Source: Ostreococcus lucimarinus
Taxonomy: Eukaryota
Strand: one strand, 5' to 3'
Assembly (NCBI GenBank): GCA_000092065.1
Contig: CP000582.1
Length of the DNA: 64,000 bases
In this document: in pieces, positions 28,230 to 54,208 of the stretch
Position numbering within the stretch: the first letter of the stretch is position 1
How the letters are laid out: every line of letters begins with the position of its first letter
Translations under genes and position numbers: made by a program
Notes under the pieces: model-generated
Told to the model about the DNA's origin: nothing
Databases searched by the model: none
The model's input: the letters and a program-made list of their open reading frames with translations, nothing else

Positions 28230-28303
28230 CTATCGTCGAGGCGCCGGGATTCTCGCGCCGCCGCGCGCGCGACCGCCGCGCGCGCGACCGCCGCGACCTC
28301 CAT

Positions 28304-28335
<32 letters not shown>

Positions 28336-31300
28336 AAGCCTGCGAAACTGCGAGCGAAACTCGAGGACTCGATGAACGCGGCGTCGGCGTCGCTCAGCAC
28401 GCGCGCGATGGCGTCCACGGCGCCTCGCATATCCGCCGGTAGCGCGTCTTTCGGTCGCTCGACGCGCATGGCGAACGCTTTGTGCAAACGTAAGCGCAAT
28501 ACCGTGATCTGCGCCACCGCGCGCAAGGGCACGCGAAATCTCAACCAATTGTCCACGACCAACAACGCCGACGGCGGACCGTCTCTCGCGCGCGCCTCGC
28601 CGGTTTCGGGATCGATTTGCGGCACGTCTGGTTTCACCGTGAGCGTGGAGCACACGAACACGATCGCCGCGGCGGCGACCAACGTGCACTCGCGCACTTG
28701 CACCGCGTGAGGGCCTCGAATGAGTTCGTCGAAGCACGCCAAGGTGGCAATTTTTTCACCCGATTCGTTGAGCTCGCCGAGCGCGCTCACGTCGAGTTTG
28801 CCGTTGACGCTAAACGCGTGCACGCGCACGCGCTCGCCGCGAAGCGTTGCCAACGTCGGCGCTTTGCACTTTGGTAAAAATCGTCCCACCAAAGGGTACA
28901 TGCCCACGGCGAGCACCGCGCGCACAAGCGCGCCGGATGACGAGTTTGCGCTCGCGCTTCGCAAATCTGAAATGATGCCGCGCTGAATCAACGCCGTGAT
29001 TAATTGCTGTCGCATGCCCTTGATCATGTGCAGCGTCGACGGCGACAAAGAATTCGCGTTCAAAAAGTACCTTTCATTTTGACGCCCATCGCGCTGAACT
29101 TGCTCCCACGCCATGTACGCCTTGGTCACCGCCAAGTGATCGCTCCCGCCGCCGGCTTCGTTGGAAAACGCCGCGCGACTGGCGTCGCCCGATTTTCGAC
29201 CGTCGGCGGAGATGATGAAGGGCGGACGATACGCCGCAGCGCACGCGACGGTGAGAATCGGATCGAGAACGCCAAACAGAGCGGCGTACAAGATCATCTT
29301 CCCCACGCGCGGGTGCAACGGAAGCTCGCCGAGATGGCGGCCGAGTCGCGTGAGGCGCTCCTCCTCCGTCAAAGCGCCGATGTCCTTGAGCAATTGCACC
29401 GCATTGTCCGTCGCTTGCGCCACAGGGGGCTCGACCGCGCGCGCGAGAAACCCAGCCGTGCTTCCCGGCCCATCGTCCACGACGCCCGCGCCGCTTTCGG
29501 CCAACACGCGCACCTGCAAGCACAGCTCCTCGAGCGGCGACCGCTGCATCTCGGGCAACTGGTACTGCGCGAACGAGTCGTACCGTGAGGTGGAGTACAC
29601 GCGATAGCACTCGCCGGGACGCACGCGACCGGCGCGACCGCGTCGCTGTTTCGCACTCGCTTGCGAGATCCAAGCCGCCTGGAGCGTAGAGACCGCAGAG
29701 TACGCGTCGTAACTCTTTTCCTTCAACCGCCCGCTGTCGATGACGAAGACGACGTCGTCAATCGTCACCGCCGTCTCCGCGATGTTGGTGGAGAGGACGA
29801 TTTTGCGCAACCCTTTAGGTGGACGTTGGAAGACTTTTCGTTGATCCGCCGGGGCGACCATGGAGTGCAAAGGTAGGACGCTCGCCGAGTGACAGACGTT
29901 GTAATCCGCCGTCAACGAGTCGCGAAGTTTGGAGATTTCGTCCCAGCCGGGCAAAAAGACTAAAATCGCGCCCTCGGATCCTTCGTCGATCGCGCGCTCT
30001 TTCATGATCCAAACGATCAAATTGTGGATTAAGTCCACGTCCACCTCGTCTGGATCCACGGAGAGCTGGTAATCGCTCAATAGAAGCGCCGACTGCTCGT
30101 GACTTCCCGCGTCTTCGTTTTCGTCGTCCACGCTTCGCAACGCGTCCGCGAGCTCGACGTGTCCAAACTTATCCGCCCAATCCGCGGCGTTGCTCCCGTC
30201 GGTGCTTCGCATCGCGGGCGACGCTCCTAAACCTAAAAGCTGCGACACTTCCATCTGTCTTCCCTTACCCGCCGCCGCCATGAGCGCGGTGGCGCCCGTG
30301 GAGTGCGCGACGTTTACGTGCGACAACCCGCTCGCAGAATCTGTCTCGCGCGCGCACTGCATGAGCCAATCGAACGACTCGTCGGTGTCCTCTAAAAATG
30401 CTCGCATGATTGCCTCGCGCATGACGTCCACGCTCGCGCCCGAAGTGGGTGCGCGCACTCTCGGTTCGCCGCCGCCGCCTCCGCTCGCCTTCTTCGACGT
30501 GTGATGCACGCCGCCCCATCCGATCATGGGCAAGATATCTTCCAGGTGATACTCATTCACCGGATGCGTATAACCTGGCACTGAAATCACCGGACACCCA
30601 CCAAAGTATTCGCTAAACAAATCTTCGCGCATCGTCGCCGACATCAGCACGAGCTTTAGGTGCGGATGCTTCGGAATCACGCCCTTCAAAATGATGGTTA
30701 GGAAATCCGCAAACAAATCTCGCTCGTGCAGCTCGTCGATGATGATATGCGTCAATGACTCGCACAGCTTATCCGACGCCTCGCTCGTGAGTCGTCGCAA
30801 CAGCACGCCGGACGTGCAAAACAACAACGAACAATCCGCCGAGACCCGGCTTTCCAATCGAATCTGGTAACCGACCGTGCTCTGCCCGATGCTCTCCCCG
30901 CGCTCGTTCGCGATGCGCTCGGAAACCGTCATCGCGCTAATCCTTCGCGGTTGCGTGCACACGATCGACGCCCCGCGCCCGTTCGCCCACGCATCGTCCA
31001 AGACGTACTGCGGCACCTGCGTCGTCTTCCCGCAACCCGTCGACCCGGCGACGAGCACGACTTGATTCGCCCGTACCGCGTTCAATATCGCATCCTTAAA
31101 CTCCCGCACCGGTAACTGTTCGCGTTTCGTCTGTATCGCCGCCAACGACGCATCGCTCGCGATCTTCGCCCGCAAGCGCGCCGCTCGCGCGTTCGTCGCC
31201 TCTTCGCCCTCGCGTCGACCTCGCATCTCCAACGCCGAGTTCCCATACCCTCGCTTCTTCCCCTTCCCTCCCGCGTCCGCCACCGCCGTTTCCCACGCCG

Positions 31301-31727
31301 CGTCCATCGTTCCGCTCACGCTCGCTCGGATCTCTTCCTCGCTCTGCGGCGCTCGCTCAAAGTATTGTTCCATCGCCGCCGTCGCCCGGCGTCCGACGCC
31401 TAAATCAAACAAATCCTCCGCATCCTCCGGCACGTACGCGTCCGCCTTCGTCACGTGCACCCTGCGCTCCGCGCCCTTCCCGTACGACTTGCTCTTCAGC
31501 CCGATCTTCTTGCACTCGGCGTGGACGACGGCGCGGAAGTGATTATCGACGTCGGACGGGAAGATGAGTTCCGTCTCGCTCGCGTCGCGTCGAAACGCGT
31601 CCAGGGCGTCGGTGATGTGAATGCGCGCGAGCTCGCCCACGGGGCGCACGAACGTTCGCGAGGCGCCTCGACCGGCGGCGCCGGGAGGGGCGCGACCGCG
31701 GCCTCGACCGCGGCCTCGACCGGACAT
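28230..31727 (-). CDS. DEAH-box RNA helicase with N-terminal R3H domain and ankyrin-repeat insertion (YTHDC2-like architecture, no YTH domain), RGG-rich C-terminus
   Basis: R3H-like SYGKGAERRVHVTK; GSTGCGKTTQVPQYVLDD (motif I), IIDELHERD (motif II DExH), SATMRE, FLPGWDEI, TNIAETAVTIDDVVFVIDSG, QRRGRAGRVRPGECYRVYS; ankyrin-like insert (LMAAAGKGRQMEVSQLLGLGASPAMRSTDGSNAADWADKFGHVELADAL) between the RecA domains; HA2/OB region; C-terminal GGGRGGGGRGDGGRGG. First ATG after the microsatellite at 31727 (MSGRGRGRG); alternative ATG at 31865 would translate the microsatellite. Confidence 0.75.
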
Positions 31728-31810
31728 TCGATGCGATGTCACGGCGAGGCGCAATGTGAGGTTTGTCGAATCTGTCTGAACGCGTCGGTTTCTTGCGTTG
31801 CAATGGCGAC

Positions 31811-31862
31811 TATATCGTATATCGTGTATATCGTGTATCGTGTATATCGTGTATATCGTGTG
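31811..31862. repeat. Imperfect (GTATATCGT)n microsatellite in the helicase 5' flank
   Basis: tatatcgtatatcgtgtatatcgtgtatcgtgtatatcgtgtatatcgtgtg. Confidence 0.8.
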
Positions 31863-31877
31863 CATCGCGCGTTCACG

Positions 31878-34499
31878 TTATCTGTCTTCGTTCATTCTCT
31901 CCTGGATGTTGTCGCGCGCCCAGGCGGCGTCGCGGCGAAGCGCGTCGTCGGGCGAGCTCGCGCACTCGCTTAAAAATTGATTCCAAAACGGCTTTTGCGC
32001 GAACACCGGACCGACACCGCGGAAACAATTGGCGATGTCGCCCAACACGCCCACCATGGACCGCGTGACGGTGGAGTCGCAGTTGGGGTCCTTGGAGACG
32101 GCCTCGATGAAATCGACGACGAAGGGTACGTGCTCGCGAATACCGTTGAGCTTGGACGCGTCCATGGATTCCAGTTTTAAGCCTTGAAGAATACCCGCGT
32201 ACGCTTCAAAAATACCGTTACGAAGCTCGTTGTTGTAGTCAACCATTTCCTCGTCGTCTGGGTTGGTGTTGGCTGATAATTGCATCGCGCTTTGCAACAT
32301 GCCGACGACGTAACTGAGAAACTTTTCAAACGACGCGCCCGTCGCCAAGGCGAGGTCGCCGAAGCACGAAAGAATCGGCGGCTTGACGCTTCGGTGGAGC
32401 TTCTCGCTTCCCAGATCGCGAAGGAGCAAGTACACGATGGGTTCGCAGTACGGCTCGATCTTGTCGTCCAACGCGCGGCAAATATCGCCGACTACGCCCA
32501 CCGTCACCGCGCACACTTGGTGCTCTTCGTGGTTTTCTAATCCTAACTTGACGTACGGGATGAAGGCATCCATGTACTTGATGAAGTTTTCGCCGACAGC
32601 GTAAGCTAACGCACCGACGGCGAGCATGGCCTCTTCATGCACCGTCGATGAACGGCAGCTAAACACGCTGAGGAACGCGTGCATCAAGCTGTCCGCGTGC
32701 GCGAACAACGTCTGCTCCTTGGTTTCCTGCGAAGCCGCGCCCAACACCTGGATGATGACTTGTAAGGTACCGCACAACAGCGCCTGCGCGTCGGCTTGCT
32801 TCTCGCGCATATCCGAACTCATCTGCTCTTGTCCAACCAACGTCGCACTGAGCTTCTGAAGCACGTGCGGGATGAGCTGTCCGACGGTGGGGTGATTCTC
32901 CTCCGTGGACGAGCGCAAAATCTCATTCATTGACTCGTAACACTCCATCTTCAACCCGACCTCGGCGTCGGGGCGCTCGCTCGTGATTAACAACGTCTGG
33001 ATGATGCTCTGGAAGTACGGCACCAGCGCACGGCGACCGGCATCGCTTTGCGAGATGGCCGAAACGAGGTTTTGCACGGACCAGCACACCTTGCCCGCCA
33101 CGTGCGGCACGTCCTTCAGCGACTCCATCATCGCCTGTAACACTTGCGGAAACGTCTGCGCGTCCACCATCGGGTGCTCGTCCGTGTGCACGAACTCGAA
33201 CACGCGCCCGATAGTCCAAGCCGTCGTGTCCTTGACGTGCGTGCTATCGTCCTTGAGCGCCATCACGAGCACCGGCAGCGCCTCCTTCGCGATGCCCCCC
33301 AAGTTCGCCGGGTTCGGGCCTTCCAAAATAGCCCCGAACGCAAACGTCGCCGCCTCGCGCTGGCGCCACTCGCTCGATCGAATGTTCGCTTGAATGTAAG
33401 CCATGACTTGCTCCACCACCGGATCTCGCACGAGCTGCGCGACGAGACCGAGGCAAATGCCCCCCGCCATGGCGAGGTTCCACGCGTTTTCGTCCTCGTC
33501 TTGGTCGTCCTCCTGCTTCGTGAGCTGTTCGAGCAACATCGGCACCAGCGCGCCGAGCGCGGTGGCGATAAAGTTGAACATCTTCACGTCCGTTTCTCCG
33601 CACTCGATCGCGTCTTGACGACCGATCTCTTCCTCGCAAATCGTGCTCCAAAATTCAATCGCTTGCAAGCCGACTTCGCTTTGATCTTGCTTGGCCGCCT
33701 TCACCGTCAACTCGTACACCGCCTCGATGTACGCCGCCATGTACTCGTAGTAATTCTCCGCGATCCCAACCAACACCTCAAACGCCGCGACGCGCACGCG
33801 CGCGTCCTCGCACGTCGTCGCCTCGCACACGCACTGCATGATGAAGTCGCGCTCTTGCGCCTTTTCAAAATTCTCGTGCGCAAAGTACAACGCGTTATTC
33901 AGCGCTTGCGTCGCCGCCAACCGCACGCCGACGTCCGTTTCCCCGCGTCCCATCGCGCTCACCACCGCCGTGAGCACCCCGTTCACGTCCGCTTGTTCCA
34001 AATCGTCCGCGTCCACCTCCTCGCACACGTACCCCAGCGCCTCCAGGCTCGCCTGCTTCGCGCCCGCGTCGCCCCCTCCCTGCGCCCCTCGCTGCAGGCT
34101 CGGTATCAAATCCGGCCACGCCTTTCGCGGCACCTCCGCGCCCGCGATCTTCGCCACCACCTGCGCCGCGACGCTCCTCACCGGCGCCTCGCCGCACGCT
34201 AAACATCCCCACGCCGCGCGTTTGATCTCCTCTCGCGTCGCCGCGTCTCGCGTCATCCATCGCTCTCGCAGCTCGCGCCGCTTCGCCTCGTCCTTCGCGT
34301 CCAGCGTGTTCTTAAGGATCACGCCCGCGAGCTGTCGCGTCGCGAGCGGCGCGCTCGCGCACGCGAGCTCGTCGACGAGCGCCTTGGCGTACGCGCCGGC
34401 GTCGGACGCCTCGGCGTGTTTGAGCGCATCCTCGGCGGCGACGCGCGCGGCGACGTCGGGCGACTGCGTCGCGGCGAGGATGGGCGTGATCGAGGTCAT
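31878..34499 (-). CDS. KPNB1: Importin subunit beta-1 (karyopherin beta)
   Basis: 873 aa, ATG at 34499. Importin-beta N-terminal domain (QSPDVAARVAAEDALK...LAGVILKN) and HEAT repeats throughout; size matches KPNB1 (876 aa). Confidence 0.85.
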   Translation of the reverse strand: MTSITPILAATQSPDVAARVAAEDALKHAEASDAGAYAKALVDELACASAPLATRQLAGVILKNTLDAKDEAKRRELRERWMTRDAATREEIKRAAWGCLACGEAPVRSVAAQVVAKIAGAEVPRKAWPDLIPSLQRGAQGGGDAGAKQASLEALGYVCEEVDADDLEQADVNGVLTAVVSAMGRGETDVGVRLAATQALNNALYFAHENFEKAQERDFIMQCVCEATTCEDARVRVAAFEVLVGIAENYYEYMAAYIEAVYELTVKAAKQDQSEVGLQAIEFWSTICEEEIGRQDAIECGETDVKMFNFIATALGALVPMLLEQLTKQEDDQDEDENAWNLAMAGGICLGLVAQLVRDPVVEQVMAYIQANIRSSEWRQREAATFAFGAILEGPNPANLGGIAKEALPVLVMALKDDSTHVKDTTAWTIGRVFEFVHTDEHPMVDAQTFPQVLQAMMESLKDVPHVAGKVCWSVQNLVSAISQSDAGRRALVPYFQSIIQTLLITSERPDAEVGLKMECYESMNEILRSSTEENHPTVGQLIPHVLQKLSATLVGQEQMSSDMREKQADAQALLCGTLQVIIQVLGAASQETKEQTLFAHADSLMHAFLSVFSCRSSTVHEEAMLAVGALAYAVGENFIKYMDAFIPYVKLGLENHEEHQVCAVTVGVVGDICRALDDKIEPYCEPIVYLLLRDLGSEKLHRSVKPPILSCFGDLALATGASFEKFLSYVVGMLQSAMQLSANTNPDDEEMVDYNNELRNGIFEAYAGILQGLKLESMDASKLNGIREHVPFVVDFIEAVSKDPNCDSTVTRSMVGVLGDIANCFRGVGPVFAQKPFWNQFLSECASSPDDALRRDAAWARDNIQERMNEDR

Positions 34500-49478: not shown

Positions 49479-50720
49479 ATGGACGAGCCCGAAGGCGACC
49501 GCGACGCCCCGGGCGACCGCGCGTCGTTCACGGACGACGACGGGACGCGCTACGACTGGGACGACGCGCGCGAGCGATTCGTCGCGCGCGACGACGACGC
49601 GACGACGCGCGACGCCGACGCGATGACGTACGACGGCGCGAGCGACGCGGAGGAAATCGCGCGCGCGGTGAAGACGTTCGACGCGATCAACGCGCTGCGA
49701 CGAGCGACGGAGGAGGACGCGGGGGAGGGGGAGGACGCGAGACGCGCGAGAAAGCGCGCGGCGGCGCTGGAACGCGCGGCGGAGCGCGCGAAGCGCGCGA
49801 AGGCGAAGCGACAGGGCGAGGGATTCGATGGGAATAAAAATGTGAAGTCGACGGGGGCGTACGTGACGGGGCTGCCGTCGGACGCGACGGAGGAGGAGTT
49901 GGGGGAGGCGTTTAAAAAGTGCGGCGTGGTGAAGCTGGACGCGAAGACGGGACGAGCGAGGGTGAAGGTGTACAGGGATGCGGACGGGAAGGTGAAGGGA
50001 GATGGGTTGGTGGTGTTTTTGAAGGCGCCGAGCGTGGATTTAGCGATCGCGCTGTTGGATCAGACGGAGTTGAGGCTTGGGGACGCGACGACGAGGATGA
50101 CGGTGACGGCGGCCAAGTTTGAGGCCAAGGCGCGGGGGGACGACGAAGGTGGGGGGGCGAAAGTCGCGGCGAAAGCGAGCGGTGGCGGCGCGCGAATGAC
50201 GAAGGCCGATCGCAAACGCGCGGCCGCTCTTCTGAAAAGGCAAGAGGCGGAGGCGTTGGGATGGGCGGGTTTCGACGACGACGTCGACGCGAAGAAGCTC
50301 ATCGTCGTCTTGCGGCGGATGTTTACTTTAGAAGAGATGTACGCCGACGCAAATTTGCGTAAAGAGCTCGAAGAAGACGTTATGGAGGAAGCGCAGCGTA
50401 CGTGCGGGCCGGTGATGAGCGTGAAGACGTACACGACGTCGCAAGATGGAACGATGACGATTCGCTTCAAATCTCTCGAAGCCGTCGAAGCGTGCGTCAA
50501 GGCGTGGAACGGTCGCTGGTTTGACGGTAGACAAATAGAAGCCTCGATGTGGGACGGAAAGAGTAAGTTTGTGAGCCAACGTGACGAGAGCGAGGCGGCG
50601 CAACGTGCGCGGTTAGACGCGTACGCCGCCGAACTCGGCGGCGGCTCGGACGCCGAAGACGCCGAAGACGACGACGACGACGTCGACGACGACGACGAAC
50701 ATTCCGACGACGAACAATAG
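49479..50720 (+). CDS. HTATSF1: HIV Tat-specific factor 1 / Cus2-like splicing factor (two RRM/UHM domains, acidic tail)
   Basis: RRM1 KSTGAYVTGLP...GDGLVVFLKAPSVDLAI; RRM2 LRRMFTLEEM...RFKSLEAVEACVKAWNGRWFDGRQIEASMWDG matches the HTATSF1 UHM; C-terminal DDDDVDDDDE. First ATG 49479. Confidence 0.75.
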   Translation: MDEPEGDRDAPGDRASFTDDDGTRYDWDDARERFVARDDDATTRDADAMTYDGASDAEEIARAVKTFDAINALRRATEEDAGEGEDARRARKRAAALERAAERAKRAKAKRQGEGFDGNKNVKSTGAYVTGLPSDATEEELGEAFKKCGVVKLDAKTGRARVKVYRDADGKVKGDGLVVFLKAPSVDLAIALLDQTELRLGDATTRMTVTAAKFEAKARGDDEGGGAKVAAKASGGGARMTKADRKRAAALLKRQEAEALGWAGFDDDVDAKKLIVVLRRMFTLEEMYADANLRKELEEDVMEEAQRTCGPVMSVKTYTTSQDGTMTIRFKSLEAVEACVKAWNGRWFDGRQIEASMWDGKSKFVSQRDESEAAQRARLDAYAAELGGGSDAEDAEDDDDDVDDDDEHSDDEQ

Positions 50721-50749: not shown

Positions 50750-51415
50750 CTAAAAGCACATCTTAATCCGCGCGTCGTAATCCTTGATCTCGCGTATCGT
50801 GTCGCTCACCTCCTTCGCCGAAAACACAAACATCGTGCACCATATCGACGAGTACTTTTTTCCGCGCGGCTTCACCTCCACCTCCACCTTCGCCTCCCCG
50901 GCCGCCCCCGCGATCTTTTCGACCAATCCAGAGACAAATCCCTCCTCGCTCGCCGTCTCCGTCGTCGTCACGACTTGATACGTGTACTTTGCCGGGAATT
51001 GTTGTATCGTCTCCATGATTTCGCCGTCGTCGCGCTCGCTCGTGTCATACGGCGCGTCGTACTCCCCTCGCAGCGCTCTGACGTACAGGTCGAATCGCGT
51101 GGCGCCGAATTCGTTCAGCGGTTCGCCGGTCTTCGCGTCGATCAAGTCGCCGCGCTCGTCGAGGACGAGATCTTTTGCCCAGTCCGGCGTCGCGGCGTCG
51201 TCACCTCCTTCCGGAACGGCGCGCGCGCGGGCGCGGCGTTCGCGGTGCGCGCGCGCGGGCGCGACGCGCGACGCGCGCGCGTGTGTGGTCGCGCACGACG
51301 CGGTGCGGTGCGAGCGCGCGCGGGCGGCGAGCATGGCGGCGCGATGTGACGCGGCGTCGACGGCGCCGAGCGAAGTCAAAGCGGTACGATTACACGTCGC
51401 GCGAGAGTGGCTCAT
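50750..51415 (-). CDS. YbeD/DUF493 (UPF0250)-like small protein with N-terminal presequence
   Basis: C-terminal about 100 aa: YTYQVVT...[11 protein letters not shown]...[43 protein letters not shown] resembles the YbeD fold family. ATG at 51415 overlaps the DapF stop (ATGA); second in-frame ATG 51334. Confidence 0.5.
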
Positions 51416-52635
51416 AAGAAATATTTACCGGCGAACACGGGCTCGGCGGGACCGGTCATGATGATTCTGCCGTCGCTCTCGCGCCATTCGATCTCGAGCG
51501 GGCCTCCCGGGAGCTCGACGGTGCACCGTCGATCGACGCGGCCCTCGAGGACGCCGGCGACGACGGTCGCGCAGGCACCGGTGCCGCACGCGAGCGTGGC
51601 GCCGGCGCCGCGTTCCCACACGTGCATCTTGACGTAGTTTCTGTTGACGACTTGGGTGAACTCGGTGTTCGTTCGCGCCGGGAAGCACGGATGCGACTCA
51701 AACTTGGGGCCGACGACGCTCAACGGGAATTCGTCCAACTTAAGACCCGGACCGTCAGCCTCGCCACCGGCGCGACCGAACGTGATGCAGTGCGGGTTAC
51801 CCATAGACACCGCGTTCACTAACCACTTCTCACCGTCCACGTCCATCTCCGCGCGCACAACCTTACCGTCTTGGGTCGCCGCGAGCGTCGTCGGGACTTC
51901 GCTCGGCTCAAAAATCGGCATCCCCATATCCACCGCCACCTGTCCATCCGCCCGCATCTCCGGTTGAATCAACCCCGCCAGCGTTCCAACCTTGTACTTT
52001 TTCGGCGGCATGGCGTCTAAATCGCTCACGAAACGCGCCAGGCATCGAATTCCGTTTCCGCACATCTCCGGTTCGCTACCGTCGCTGTTAAACATCCGCA
52101 TCGAGTAATCCTCCGACGCGTCGTTCGGCGGCATGGCGAATATCACCCCATCACCACCGATTCCAAAGTTACGATCGCACATCTTCGCCGCGGCTTCGCT
52201 CGACATCTTCACAGTCGCGCTGTCGCGGTTGTCGATTAATATAAAGTCGTTCCCGAGGCCCTGGTACTTGATGAAATCGATCGTCCGCGACGCCTCGGCG
52301 ACGACGCGCGCGCGTCCGACGCGCGTCGCGCGGGCGTGCGACGCGCGCGGCGTCGATCTGCGCGGCGAAAAACGCGCGCGCGGTGAGTCTGCGGTCGAGC
52401 GCGCGCGTCGACGCGTCGCGAGTGGATATGGACGTCGCGCGACCGAACGCGCGCGCGCGGCGGCGACGGGGCGCGCGAGACGAACGCGCGCGCGCACCTC
52501 GAGGCGAGCGAAACGGTGGCGCCGCGCGCGAGCATGGTGCGCGGTCGTCGGACGAGCGCGGGGCGCGAAGTGCGGCGGCGCGCGGCGGCTGGGCGGGTCG
52601 CGACGACGTTCGTCTCGAGGCGGTTCGGTGCACAT
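51412..52635 (-). CDS. DAPF: Diaminopimelate epimerase with long R-rich N-terminal presequence
   Basis: [37 protein letters not shown] (both catalytic Cys), C-terminus [15 protein letters not shown] collinear with DapF. The only in-frame ATG before the domain is 52635. Confidence 0.8.
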
Positions 52636-52660
52636 TTCTCGGACTATCGCGACGTGCGCG

Positions 52661-53950
52661 TCATCTGATCAACTTTTTCGCGCGGTTTCGCCAGTCGTTG
52701 ACGCGCTGGACGAGGCTGAAGGCGACGTAGGCGGAGACGGCGACGGTGGCGTACGCCCGCAGGCTGTAGTCGCCGGTAGGATCTCTCGCGATTTCGCGAA
52801 CGACGTGCGTGACGCGCGACGCGAGCGCGTCGACGGTCGAAACTTTCTCCGCGTTCGTACCGTCGTCCTCGACTGGTTCCGGTGCCGCCGTCGGCGAGGA
52901 TTTTGTGATTTCCGTTTCGTTCTCTTCCGCCGGCGCGTCGTCGTCGCTGGCGTTCTCGTCCTCGCCGTCGTCGTCGACGCGTTGATTTTTGACCATCACG
53001 CGACCGGTGTGCTCGTCGTACGACACCGAGAATCGGTAGTTTTTGTTGATGTTCGCTTTTTGAATCCAACTCCTCGTCAACACGATGATTTGCTCGTCGA
53101 GCAAGTCCTCGCGTTTGTCGAGCCACGCGTGCGCGGCGTCTTCGTCCTCGCGCTGCGCCGCCAATATTTGACTCGCGTACAGCCACCCCAAGTTCCTCAA
53201 CGCGTCGCGCCACGCCACATTCAACTCTTCCGACATGCTTTCGTCGTTCAACACGTTTGCCGCGGCGGCGTCGTCGAAGAGCGCTAAAATCTCGCGTTCG
53301 ATCTCCGCCTCCTCCCGCGATCCCGCCGTCTTCCCCGCGCCCTCTTCCCACTTCAACTTGCACCACAGCATCCGCGCCGTCGGCCCCAACCGCGGCGGCG
53401 TCCCGACCCTAACCCCTCGTCGCAGCTCCGCGAAGTCCTCCGCCATCGTGCGCCCCAATCCATCCTTCGATTTAAACTTGCACTGCACCCACAGGCACGA
53501 CGTCACCCACGCCGCGTCTCTCTCGCGCAGATCCTCCACCGGCCACCGCACGCTCTCCGCGTCCCGCGCCAGCGCCCTTCGCTCCGCGTTCCTCTCCGAG
53601 CCCTCGTCTTCGTCTTCGCTGCACGAGCACTCGCCGTATATCTCATCCAGGTACCGCTCCGGCCGCCGCAACCGCCGCGCCGCCGCCGCGACCGCCGCGT
53701 CGATCCCCGAGTCCTCGCGCGCCGTCGCGCGCGCCCTCGCGCCCGACTCGCGCGCGTCGCTCGACGTCCCTCGCACCAGCGGTCGCGGCGCGCTCGGATC
53801 GTCGACGTACGCCGCGTACACGCGCTCGCACATCGCGCGACACTCGGCAAAGTGCGCGCACACGAACAGCCGCTCGCACTGCTCGAGCGACACCTCGTCG
53901 CCGAGCGCGCGCGCCGACGGCGCCGCCGGCAGCGTCGAGTCGTCGTCCAT
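52661..53950 (-). CDS. Hypothetical protein with C-terminal hydrophobic segment (tail-anchor-like)
   Basis: ORF start 54082 is TTG; first ATG 53950 ([11 protein letters not shown]); C-terminal [23 protein letters not shown] followed by basic tail; no domain recognised. Confidence 0.4.
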
Positions 53951-54208
53951 CGCGTCGCCGACCGCGACGCGGCGACGCGCGCGCGTGTGCGGGCGACACT
54001 CGGCGACGCGAATCGAATCGGCGGATTCGCGATCGACGATGGGCGTCGCGGCGAAGCGACGCGCCAAGGCGCGCGCGGCCAAGGCGCGCGACAGGGCGAC
54101 GGTGCGTTCGCGCGCGCGACGCGCGCGAACGATCGAGCGCGCGCGCGACGCGAAGGCCGAAGGCGCGATCGGCGCCGGCGGCGGGATCGAACGAGACGAC
54201 GGCGCGCG

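Follow-up and report, generated by a model that had tools for sequence, protein, structure and literature searches.

Three minus-strand open reading frames (ORFs) of Ostreococcus lucimarinus, encoding a hypothetical protein, DapF and a YbeD-like DUF493 protein, follow one another with spacing of the kind found in bacterial operons. The question raised by this locus is whether the three genes are co-transcribed and translated as a unit, whether they were recently acquired as a cluster, or whether such spacing is ordinary in this genome. The window analyzed here is a 64,000-nucleotide stretch of contig CP000582.1 (assembly GCA_000092065.1), of which the array occupies positions 50,750 to 53,950. 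It was found that the three ORFs are exact matches to annotated proteins of O. lucimarinus CCE9901 (XP_001416324, XP_001416323 and XP_001416322) on a chromosome record of 895,087 bp, arranged with a convergent neighbor as follows:

52661..53950 (-), hypothetical protein gene, 429 aa; XP_001416324, exact match
52635..51412 (-), DapF, GenBank model XP_001416323, 407 aa, unspliced
50750..51334 (-), DUF493 (YbeD-like) gene, 194 aa; XP_001416322, which starts at the second ATG
49479..50720 (+), convergent RRM-protein gene (Pfam and ORF list)

The divergent flank is occupied by a gene for an SF3B2-like splicing factor (DUF382 and PSP domains in Pfam). At the other end, the stop codons of the RRM and DUF493 genes are 29 nt apart, and therefore the 3′ ends of this convergent pair overlap. 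The GC content of the array is 0.62 to 0.67, no different from the remainder of the window. We consider it highly probable that these are three nuclear genes lying head-to-tail but independent of one another, and that they belong to a block of conserved synteny in an extremely compact genome.

Gene boundaries in the array

Both of the junctions described in the sequence-only reading are present in the DNA. The stop codon of the hypothetical ORF is TGA 52663-52661, and the DapF ORF has an in-frame ATG at 52635, 25 nt later; in the unspliced DapF ORF, this is the sole in-frame ATG ahead of the epimerase domain. The DapF TGA (51414-51412) overlaps an ATG at 51415 as ATGA, and the DUF493 ORF has a second in-frame ATG at 51334. 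Such arrangements are readily found elsewhere in the window, where stop codons are absent from 65% of the stretches of 27 codons and from 31% of those of 100 codons, 3 of the 28 long ORFs end in ATGA, and the spacers between tandem ORFs, when measured to the first ATG, include values of 12, 45, 59, 117, 123 and 124 nt. Ostreococcus intergenic regions have a mean length of less than 200 bp, and the transcripts of neighboring genes overlap in this genus (PMC2367439).

Four RNA-derived contigs (L003 to L006), together with a comparison of related sequences, gave the following features of the array:

53988 (-), 5′ terminus of the mRNA from the hypothetical gene (L003), 38 nt ahead of its ATG at 53950
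52536..52660 (-), true hypothetical-DapF spacer, 125 nt, transcribed; it holds the unsupported annotated ATG 52635-52633
52498..52535 (-), DapF exon 1, 38 nt (12 codons plus 2 nt), start context CACCATGC
52358..52497 (-), DapF intron, 140 nt, phase 2, GT-AG, GTGCGCGCG...ACTCAC...TTTTTCGCCGCGCAG; absent from the GenBank model
51412..52357 (-), DapF exon 2, including TGA 51414-51412
51412..51415 (-), ATGA, in which the DapF stop overlaps the upstream in-frame ATG of the DUF493 ORF, read from the sequence; probably not a start codon
51390..51394 (-), TGTAA, likely DapF polyadenylation signal, the sole TGTAA on this strand in 54100-50600
51365..51374 (-), DapF mRNA 3′ end and poly(A) site (ends of L004, L005 and L006)

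The ATG at 52535 is in a different reading frame from the 407-aa ORF, and it opens a short exon-1 peptide that resembles the starts of sister-species proteins (MFATRHASTASATS and MLATRH...; the sister protein begins MFATRHASTASATSR). Directly after this peptide, an AG/GTGCGCGCGCG donor is common to the window and to the sister-species locus L002, and a CAG/A acceptor is present in both, 140 nt further on in the window and 120 nt further on in L002, where the 120-nt segment is a candidate intron at the matching position. Deletion of 52497-52358 links ATG 52535 to the DapF frame and gives a protein of 327 aa. This protein was predicted from the sequence, and it was then matched exactly (P0165) by four Logan contigs from four sequencing runs; a variant differing by 1 aa is UniRef100_A0A7R9T2L4 of Ostreococcus sp. 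'lucimarinus'. Contigs L003 to L006 align to the window without gaps (4 to 12 SNPs) only when the 140 nt are deleted, and more than 20 colinear, apparently genomic contigs keep them. Splice acceptors at 52389 and 52294 were also considered, and arithmetic on the sequence showed that they give the wrong frame. A 26-mer spanning the exon-exon junction had no match in the JGI metagenome contigs scanned, and an exact-match look-up of seven spliced forms of the DapF of the sister species, each of 330 aa, found none of them in the protein collection. One further contig (L001, 97% identical) would suggest a compensated frameshift in the presequence, but it was discounted as error-prone: it has indels of +2, +1 and +3, the upstream gene is split in it, and to judge by its name it comes from a long-read assembler.

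DapF therefore starts at ATG 52535, the intron at 52497-52358 is spliced out, and the product is a 327-aa precursor, from which it follows that the spacer behind the hypothetical gene is 125 nt. The sequence-only reading had taken 52635 as the only possible DapF ATG, and this is wrong, because the spliced RNA contigs start DapF at 52535, a displacement of the kind that had been named beforehand as contrary to its proposal. The hidden exon structure that it had offered as one alternative is borne out by the 140-nt intron. The RNA confirms this 5′ intron only in the O. lucimarinus lineage, and O. tauri, with a DapF of 327 aa, is without it; other DapF proteins of the Mamiellophyceae are 327 to 335 aa in length.

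The 327-aa protein matches the DapF equivalog TIGR00652 with 292.9 bits (cut-off 114.65) over profile positions 1-269 of 270 and residues 39-326, and Pfam PF01678 (DAP_epimerase) with 204 bits. A presequence of about 38 aa, rich in Ala, Arg and Ser and transit-peptide-like (35 to 50 aa in relatives), precedes the mature epimerase domain, whose first residue is 39. By these matches, the protein is a plastid-type diaminopimelate epimerase, for which a catalytic role is predicted.

The start of the DUF493 gene was evaluated in a similar way. The protein matches PF04359 with 41.1 bits (cut-off 24) over profile positions 2-82 of 84, had no match among PDB sequences or NCBIfam, and reached only Ostreococcus-type sequences in a word-based protein search. 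The context of ATG 51415 is weak (cttATGa) and that of ATG 51334 is good (GCCGCCATGC), and the 27-codon extension between them is unconserved in the sister species (P0195 compared with the window). Orthologues of 187 to 195 aa start at the equivalent Met, leaving a transit-peptide-like presequence of about 45 aa. The use of the second ATG, which the sequence-only reading had put forward for checking, is thus found in both the GenBank model and the orthologues, and the DUF493 protein most likely starts at ATG 51334, 77 nt past the DapF stop.

This 77-nt spacer holds a 3′-end processing site. Contig L004 ends at 51365 and continues with a non-templated AAT followed by 23 A residues, L005 ends at 51368, and L006 ends at 51374. 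The DapF poly(A) site at about 51365 is approximately 46 nt past the stop and 25 to 29 nt downstream of TGTAA, a known poly(A) signal in Chlamydomonas. A TGTAA within 30 nt past the stop was found for 8 of the 36 ORFs of the window, compared to about 0.4 expected, which suggests the same function for TGTAA in this genome.

The corrected spacers of 125 nt (from the RNA contigs) and 77 nt (from the GenBank model and orthologues) are within the range of tandem genes in the window (12 to 203 nt and above), and they replace the 25-nt gap and the ATGA overlap as gene boundaries. The bacterial-looking junctions are artefacts of reading the longest ORF in GC-rich, stop-poor DNA, compounded by a missed intron.

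RNA across the three genes

Contig L003 begins with ACGCAGAGTACGGG, which is absent from the genome and which we take to be the tail of a SMART template-switch oligonucleotide, and then continues directly with window position 53988. From this tagged 5′ end, it runs through the hypothetical gene, the spliced DapF gene and the DUF493 gene to position 50672, 48 nt inside the convergent RRM coding sequence. Contigs L004 to L006 run from near the 5′ end of the hypothetical gene (53964 in L004) to the DapF poly(A) site. Both spacers are therefore transcribed, and because the RNA contigs are unbroken across the genes, transcription overlaps or reads through from one unit into the next. The same follows from the spacers being shorter than a promoter plus untranslated regions. 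All four contigs are short-read k-mer assemblies, and assemblies of this type merge overlapping transcripts and do not establish that one molecule spans the genes.

In the arrangement that we propose, each protein would be made from its own capped mRNA. The RNA of the hypothetical gene starts at 53988 and that of DapF is polyadenylated at about 51365 after TGTAA, and the start sites of the DapF and DUF493 transcripts would be located within the gene that precedes each of them, or a short distance past it. As read from the sequence, an RNA holding AUG 52635 would, once spliced, carry an out-of-frame overlapping upstream ORF, and so the 5′ end of an efficient DapF mRNA would be expected within 52633-52536. 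Neither a DapF- or DUF493-specific transcription start nor a poly(A) site of the hypothetical gene was seen in the RNA contigs. The sole TGTAA on this strand in 54100-50600 is the one past the DapF stop, and none is present behind the stop of the hypothetical gene; the short contigs searched for a separate 3′ end of this gene were all colinear, intron-containing, multi-gene and apparently genomic, and hence uninformative on this point. A literature search found no long-read transcriptome study of Ostreococcus.

An alternative interpretation, which we regard as unlikely, is that the RNA is a genuine polycistronic mRNA, capped, spliced and polyadenylated, that starts at 53988 and from which the hypothetical protein and DapF, and sometimes the DUF493 protein, are translated, as at loci of Chlamydomonas and Chromochloris. 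In keeping with it, L003 spans the tagged 5′ end and all three ORFs, L004 begins at 53964 and ends in the DapF poly(A) tail, and the upstream gene is present on all four contigs that have the whole of spliced DapF, as it would be on a bicistronic RNA; the past-stop region of the hypothetical gene is without an obvious poly(A) signal, and the colinearity of the genes is conserved. However, short-read assemblies of this kind fuse overlapping transcripts, a poly(A) site separates DapF from DUF493, and the first ORF is 1290 nt long with a strong start context (gcgATGg, with G at -3 and +4) and with eleven AUGs between 53988 and AUG 52535. In known algal polycistrons, the upstream ORFs are short (median 444 nt in C. 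zofingiensis; PMC7896298) and translation depends on leaky scanning, with a weaker start context of the first ORF favoring the downstream product (PMC7896298; PMC11892635). As weak evidence in the same direction, DapF is found among named or UniRef entries of transcriptome type and the hypothetical protein is not. The length of the first ORF, its strong first AUG and the eleven AUGs thus lean against functional polycistronic translation. If the read-through RNA were a translated polycistron, algal polycistrony would extend to the Mamiellophyceae, and it is against this that the evidence leans.

It is similarly improbable that the hypothetical gene lacks a terminator, such that its mRNA always runs through the spliced DapF gene as far as the poly(A) site of DapF, and in some cases through DUF493 as well, with DapF produced by reinitiation or internal entry and with no nested promoter; this would be a true bi- or tricistronic nuclear mRNA of a mamiellophyte, with a long first ORF. 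Of the polycistronic or overlapping transcription suggested in the sequence-only reading, the continuity of the RNA across two genes (L004 to L006) or three genes (L003) stands, and a single polycistronic molecule would be one possible source of these contigs; a poly(A) site is present between DapF and DUF493, and the upstream ORFs are long and AUG-rich, which sets them apart from known green-algal polycistrons. The probable interpretation is that of three independent genes whose transcripts overlap or read through.

The annotated DapF model and the origin of the array

There is very little likelihood that the GenBank model is correct, with DapF an unspliced 407-aa protein initiated at ATG 52635 and the spliced form a minor isoform. 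The frame is open from 52635, more than 100 environmental contigs contain the 407-aa ORF, and unspliced colinear contigs (L011 to L013) exist from the same run series, which would represent intron retention if they are RNA. Open frames are expected, however, given the proportion of stop-free 100-codon stretches noted above, and everything that carries the hallmarks of RNA is spliced. The presequence of the 407-aa protein would be 118 aa long, compared to 35 to 50 aa in relatives, and it is unconserved in an alignment of relatives, whereas the exon-1 peptide is conserved. In addition, contig L012 has a natural 5-nt deletion (52582-52578) between the two ATGs that destroys the 407-aa ORF; the deletion is harmless if the region is 5′ untranslated.

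Comparison of gene order, as the sequence-only reading had recommended, showed that the block is kept in four loci of Ostreococcus type, one of them that of O. tauri. All four have the order SF3B2(-) / hypothetical / DapF / DUF493 / RRM(-), with the following spacers:

L002, hypothetical-DapF 182 nt, DapF-DUF493 94 nt
L009, hypothetical-DapF 101 nt, DapF-DUF493 74 nt
O. tauri RCC1115 (L024; DapF 327 aa, no intron), hypothetical-DapF 101 nt, DapF-DUF493 73 nt
L007, hypothetical-DapF about 145 nt, DapF-DUF493 179 nt

In a Micromonas-like locus (L008), DapF and the RRM gene are accompanied by a tail-anchored protein of weak similarity, and DUF493 is missing. The hypothetical protein of O. lucimarinus is itself helical, with a C-terminal hydrophobic helix that is tail-anchor-like. 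It had no match in Pfam or, with a profile search included, in PDB, and its AlphaFold2 model is poor (pLDDT 52.5). A protein search found its homologues only in Ostreococcus-type clusters, none of them bacterial, and by this distribution the protein appears to be lineage-specific.

A recently transferred bacterial cluster that keeps its operon spacing, as the sequence-only reading had suggested, would be in keeping with the ultimately bacterial or plastid ancestry of DapF and DUF493 and with the bacterial-looking spacing of the raw ORFs, but it is rejected as having next to no probability, because the DapF gene is interrupted by a spliceosomal intron, the DapF and DUF493 proteins each begin with a transit-peptide-like presequence, DapF is closest, beyond the genus, to the proteins of green algae and plants (55 to 70% identity), synteny extends across Ostreococcus species and partly to the Micromonas-like locus, the GC content is like that of the flanks, the flanking genes are eukaryotic and splicing-related, and the first gene has no bacterial homologues.

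Taken together, these results indicate that the array is real but ordinary for this compact genome. The reference DapF model XP_001416323 (407 aa) should be replaced by the two-exon, 327-aa model, and the apparent junctions of 25 and -4 nt should not be counted as operon-like signals. Caution is warranted on two points: reading the longest ORF in GC-rich, compact genomes produces false N-terminal extensions and false gene overlaps, and short-read transcript assemblies fuse neighboring genes. The useful residue is the correction of the annotation and the evidence for same-strand transcript overlap or read-through; there is little significance beyond annotation.

Comparison with known systems

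The DapF protein has the properties of the plastid-targeted DapF of Viridiplantae (TIGR00652/PF01678), with which it shares the full-length equivalog match, the N-terminal presequence and the identity range of 55 to 70%; the sole difference is the 5′ intron of the O. lucimarinus lineage. Compared to a bacterial operon or a recent transfer, the array differs in the intron shown by RNA, the green best matches of DapF and the synteny in four loci.

With the green-algal polycistronic loci (Gallaher et al. 2021, PMC7896298; Duenas et al. 2025, PMC11892635), the array shares colinear same-strand ORFs, short distances between ORFs, conserved colinearity and multi-ORF RNA. The RNA here consists of short-read contigs (L003 to L006) spanning two to three ORFs; a template-switch tag marks the 5′ end and poly(A) the 3′ end, and assembly can merge overlapping transcripts into such contigs. 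The polycistronic loci have one poly(A) tail per locus by Iso-Seq, whereas here a poly(A) site at about 51365 separates the second ORF from the third; no such site was seen between the hypothetical ORF and DapF. Their upstream ORFs are short and suited to leaky scanning, whereas here the first ORF has 1290 nt, a strong start and many AUGs ahead of 52535. Finally, the spacing of 77 to 125 nt is the norm of this genome and not an outlier.

The closer likeness is to overlapping transcription units. Multigene transcripts of the compacted genomes of microsporidia and nucleomorphs (Williams et al. 2005 PNAS, as cited in PMC2367439) have in common with this locus spacers shorter than the untranslated regions, cDNAs that hold adjacent genes wholly or in part, and genes that are otherwise independent and unrelated in function. 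In O. lucimarinus itself, the EST work of PMC2367439 described overlaps between genes on opposite strands, whereas here the overlap involves same-strand neighbors and is seen in short-read assemblies only: contigs L003 to L006, as a whole set, cover both spacers, and L003 continues 48 nt into the RRM coding sequence.

The hypothetical protein upstream of DapF

52661-53950, minus strand: hypothetical protein gene

Sequence comparison indicates that the product of this gene is a fast-evolving and lineage-specific protein. Among the Ostreococcus-type clusters, its identity was 40-55%, whereas that of DapF was roughly 70-80%. The protein is helical, with a hydrophobic helix at the C-terminal end (residues 395-428), and searches of Pfam and PDB yielded no match in either. 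A tail-anchored protein that is weakly similar to it is encoded upstream of DapF in the Micromonas-like contig L008 (L008:2588-3628).

Presequences and 5′ gene models

In the Logan contig L012 (SRR21474781), a 5-nt deletion was found at the equivalent of window 52578-52582, between the ATG at 52635 and the ATG at 52535, and it breaks the annotated 407-aa DapF ORF. This deletion is either a natural variant or an assembly variant. Indels of +2, +1, and +3 were found in a second, 97% identical contig (ENA ERZ10646634 contig_16355, L001:820-1300); these shift about 95 codons of the DapF presequence to another frame with the ORF still open, and the gene upstream of DapF is split in two. The indels and the split gene are probably due to long-read indel error.

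The DUF493 gene model of O. tauri RCC1115 (L024:5001-5642, KZ155839.1) contains a 78-nt intron that takes out most of the presequence; in the near-identical locus L009, the ORF is uninterrupted and includes this presequence. The O. tauri model is possibly another doubtful 5′ gene model. Elsewhere in the window (28230-34499, minus strand), long ORFs of 873 and 1211 aa lie in the same frame with a gap of only 12 nt; the second starts inside a CACGATATA-type tandem repeat, so that its first ATG is probably spurious.

Contig breaks and gene ends

50670-50720: (GTC)n/(GAC)n run, coding for the RRM protein's acidic C-terminal tail

Nearly all contigs, both transcript and genomic, break at this run, and the convergent stop codons in this region are only 29 nt apart. 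Seven JGI contigs from different samples (L025, L026, and L028-L032) have nearly coinciding starts, equivalent to window ~53894, within the hypothetical protein gene and towards its 5′ end. This coincidence suggests a recurrent assembly break, perhaps at a low-complexity or polymorphic site.

In a window-wide count, TGTAA was present in the first 30 nt past the stop codon in 8 of the 36 ORFs, compared to about 0.4 expected. This strong enrichment immediately after the stop would fit a polyadenylation signal of the UGUAA type in Ostreococcus.
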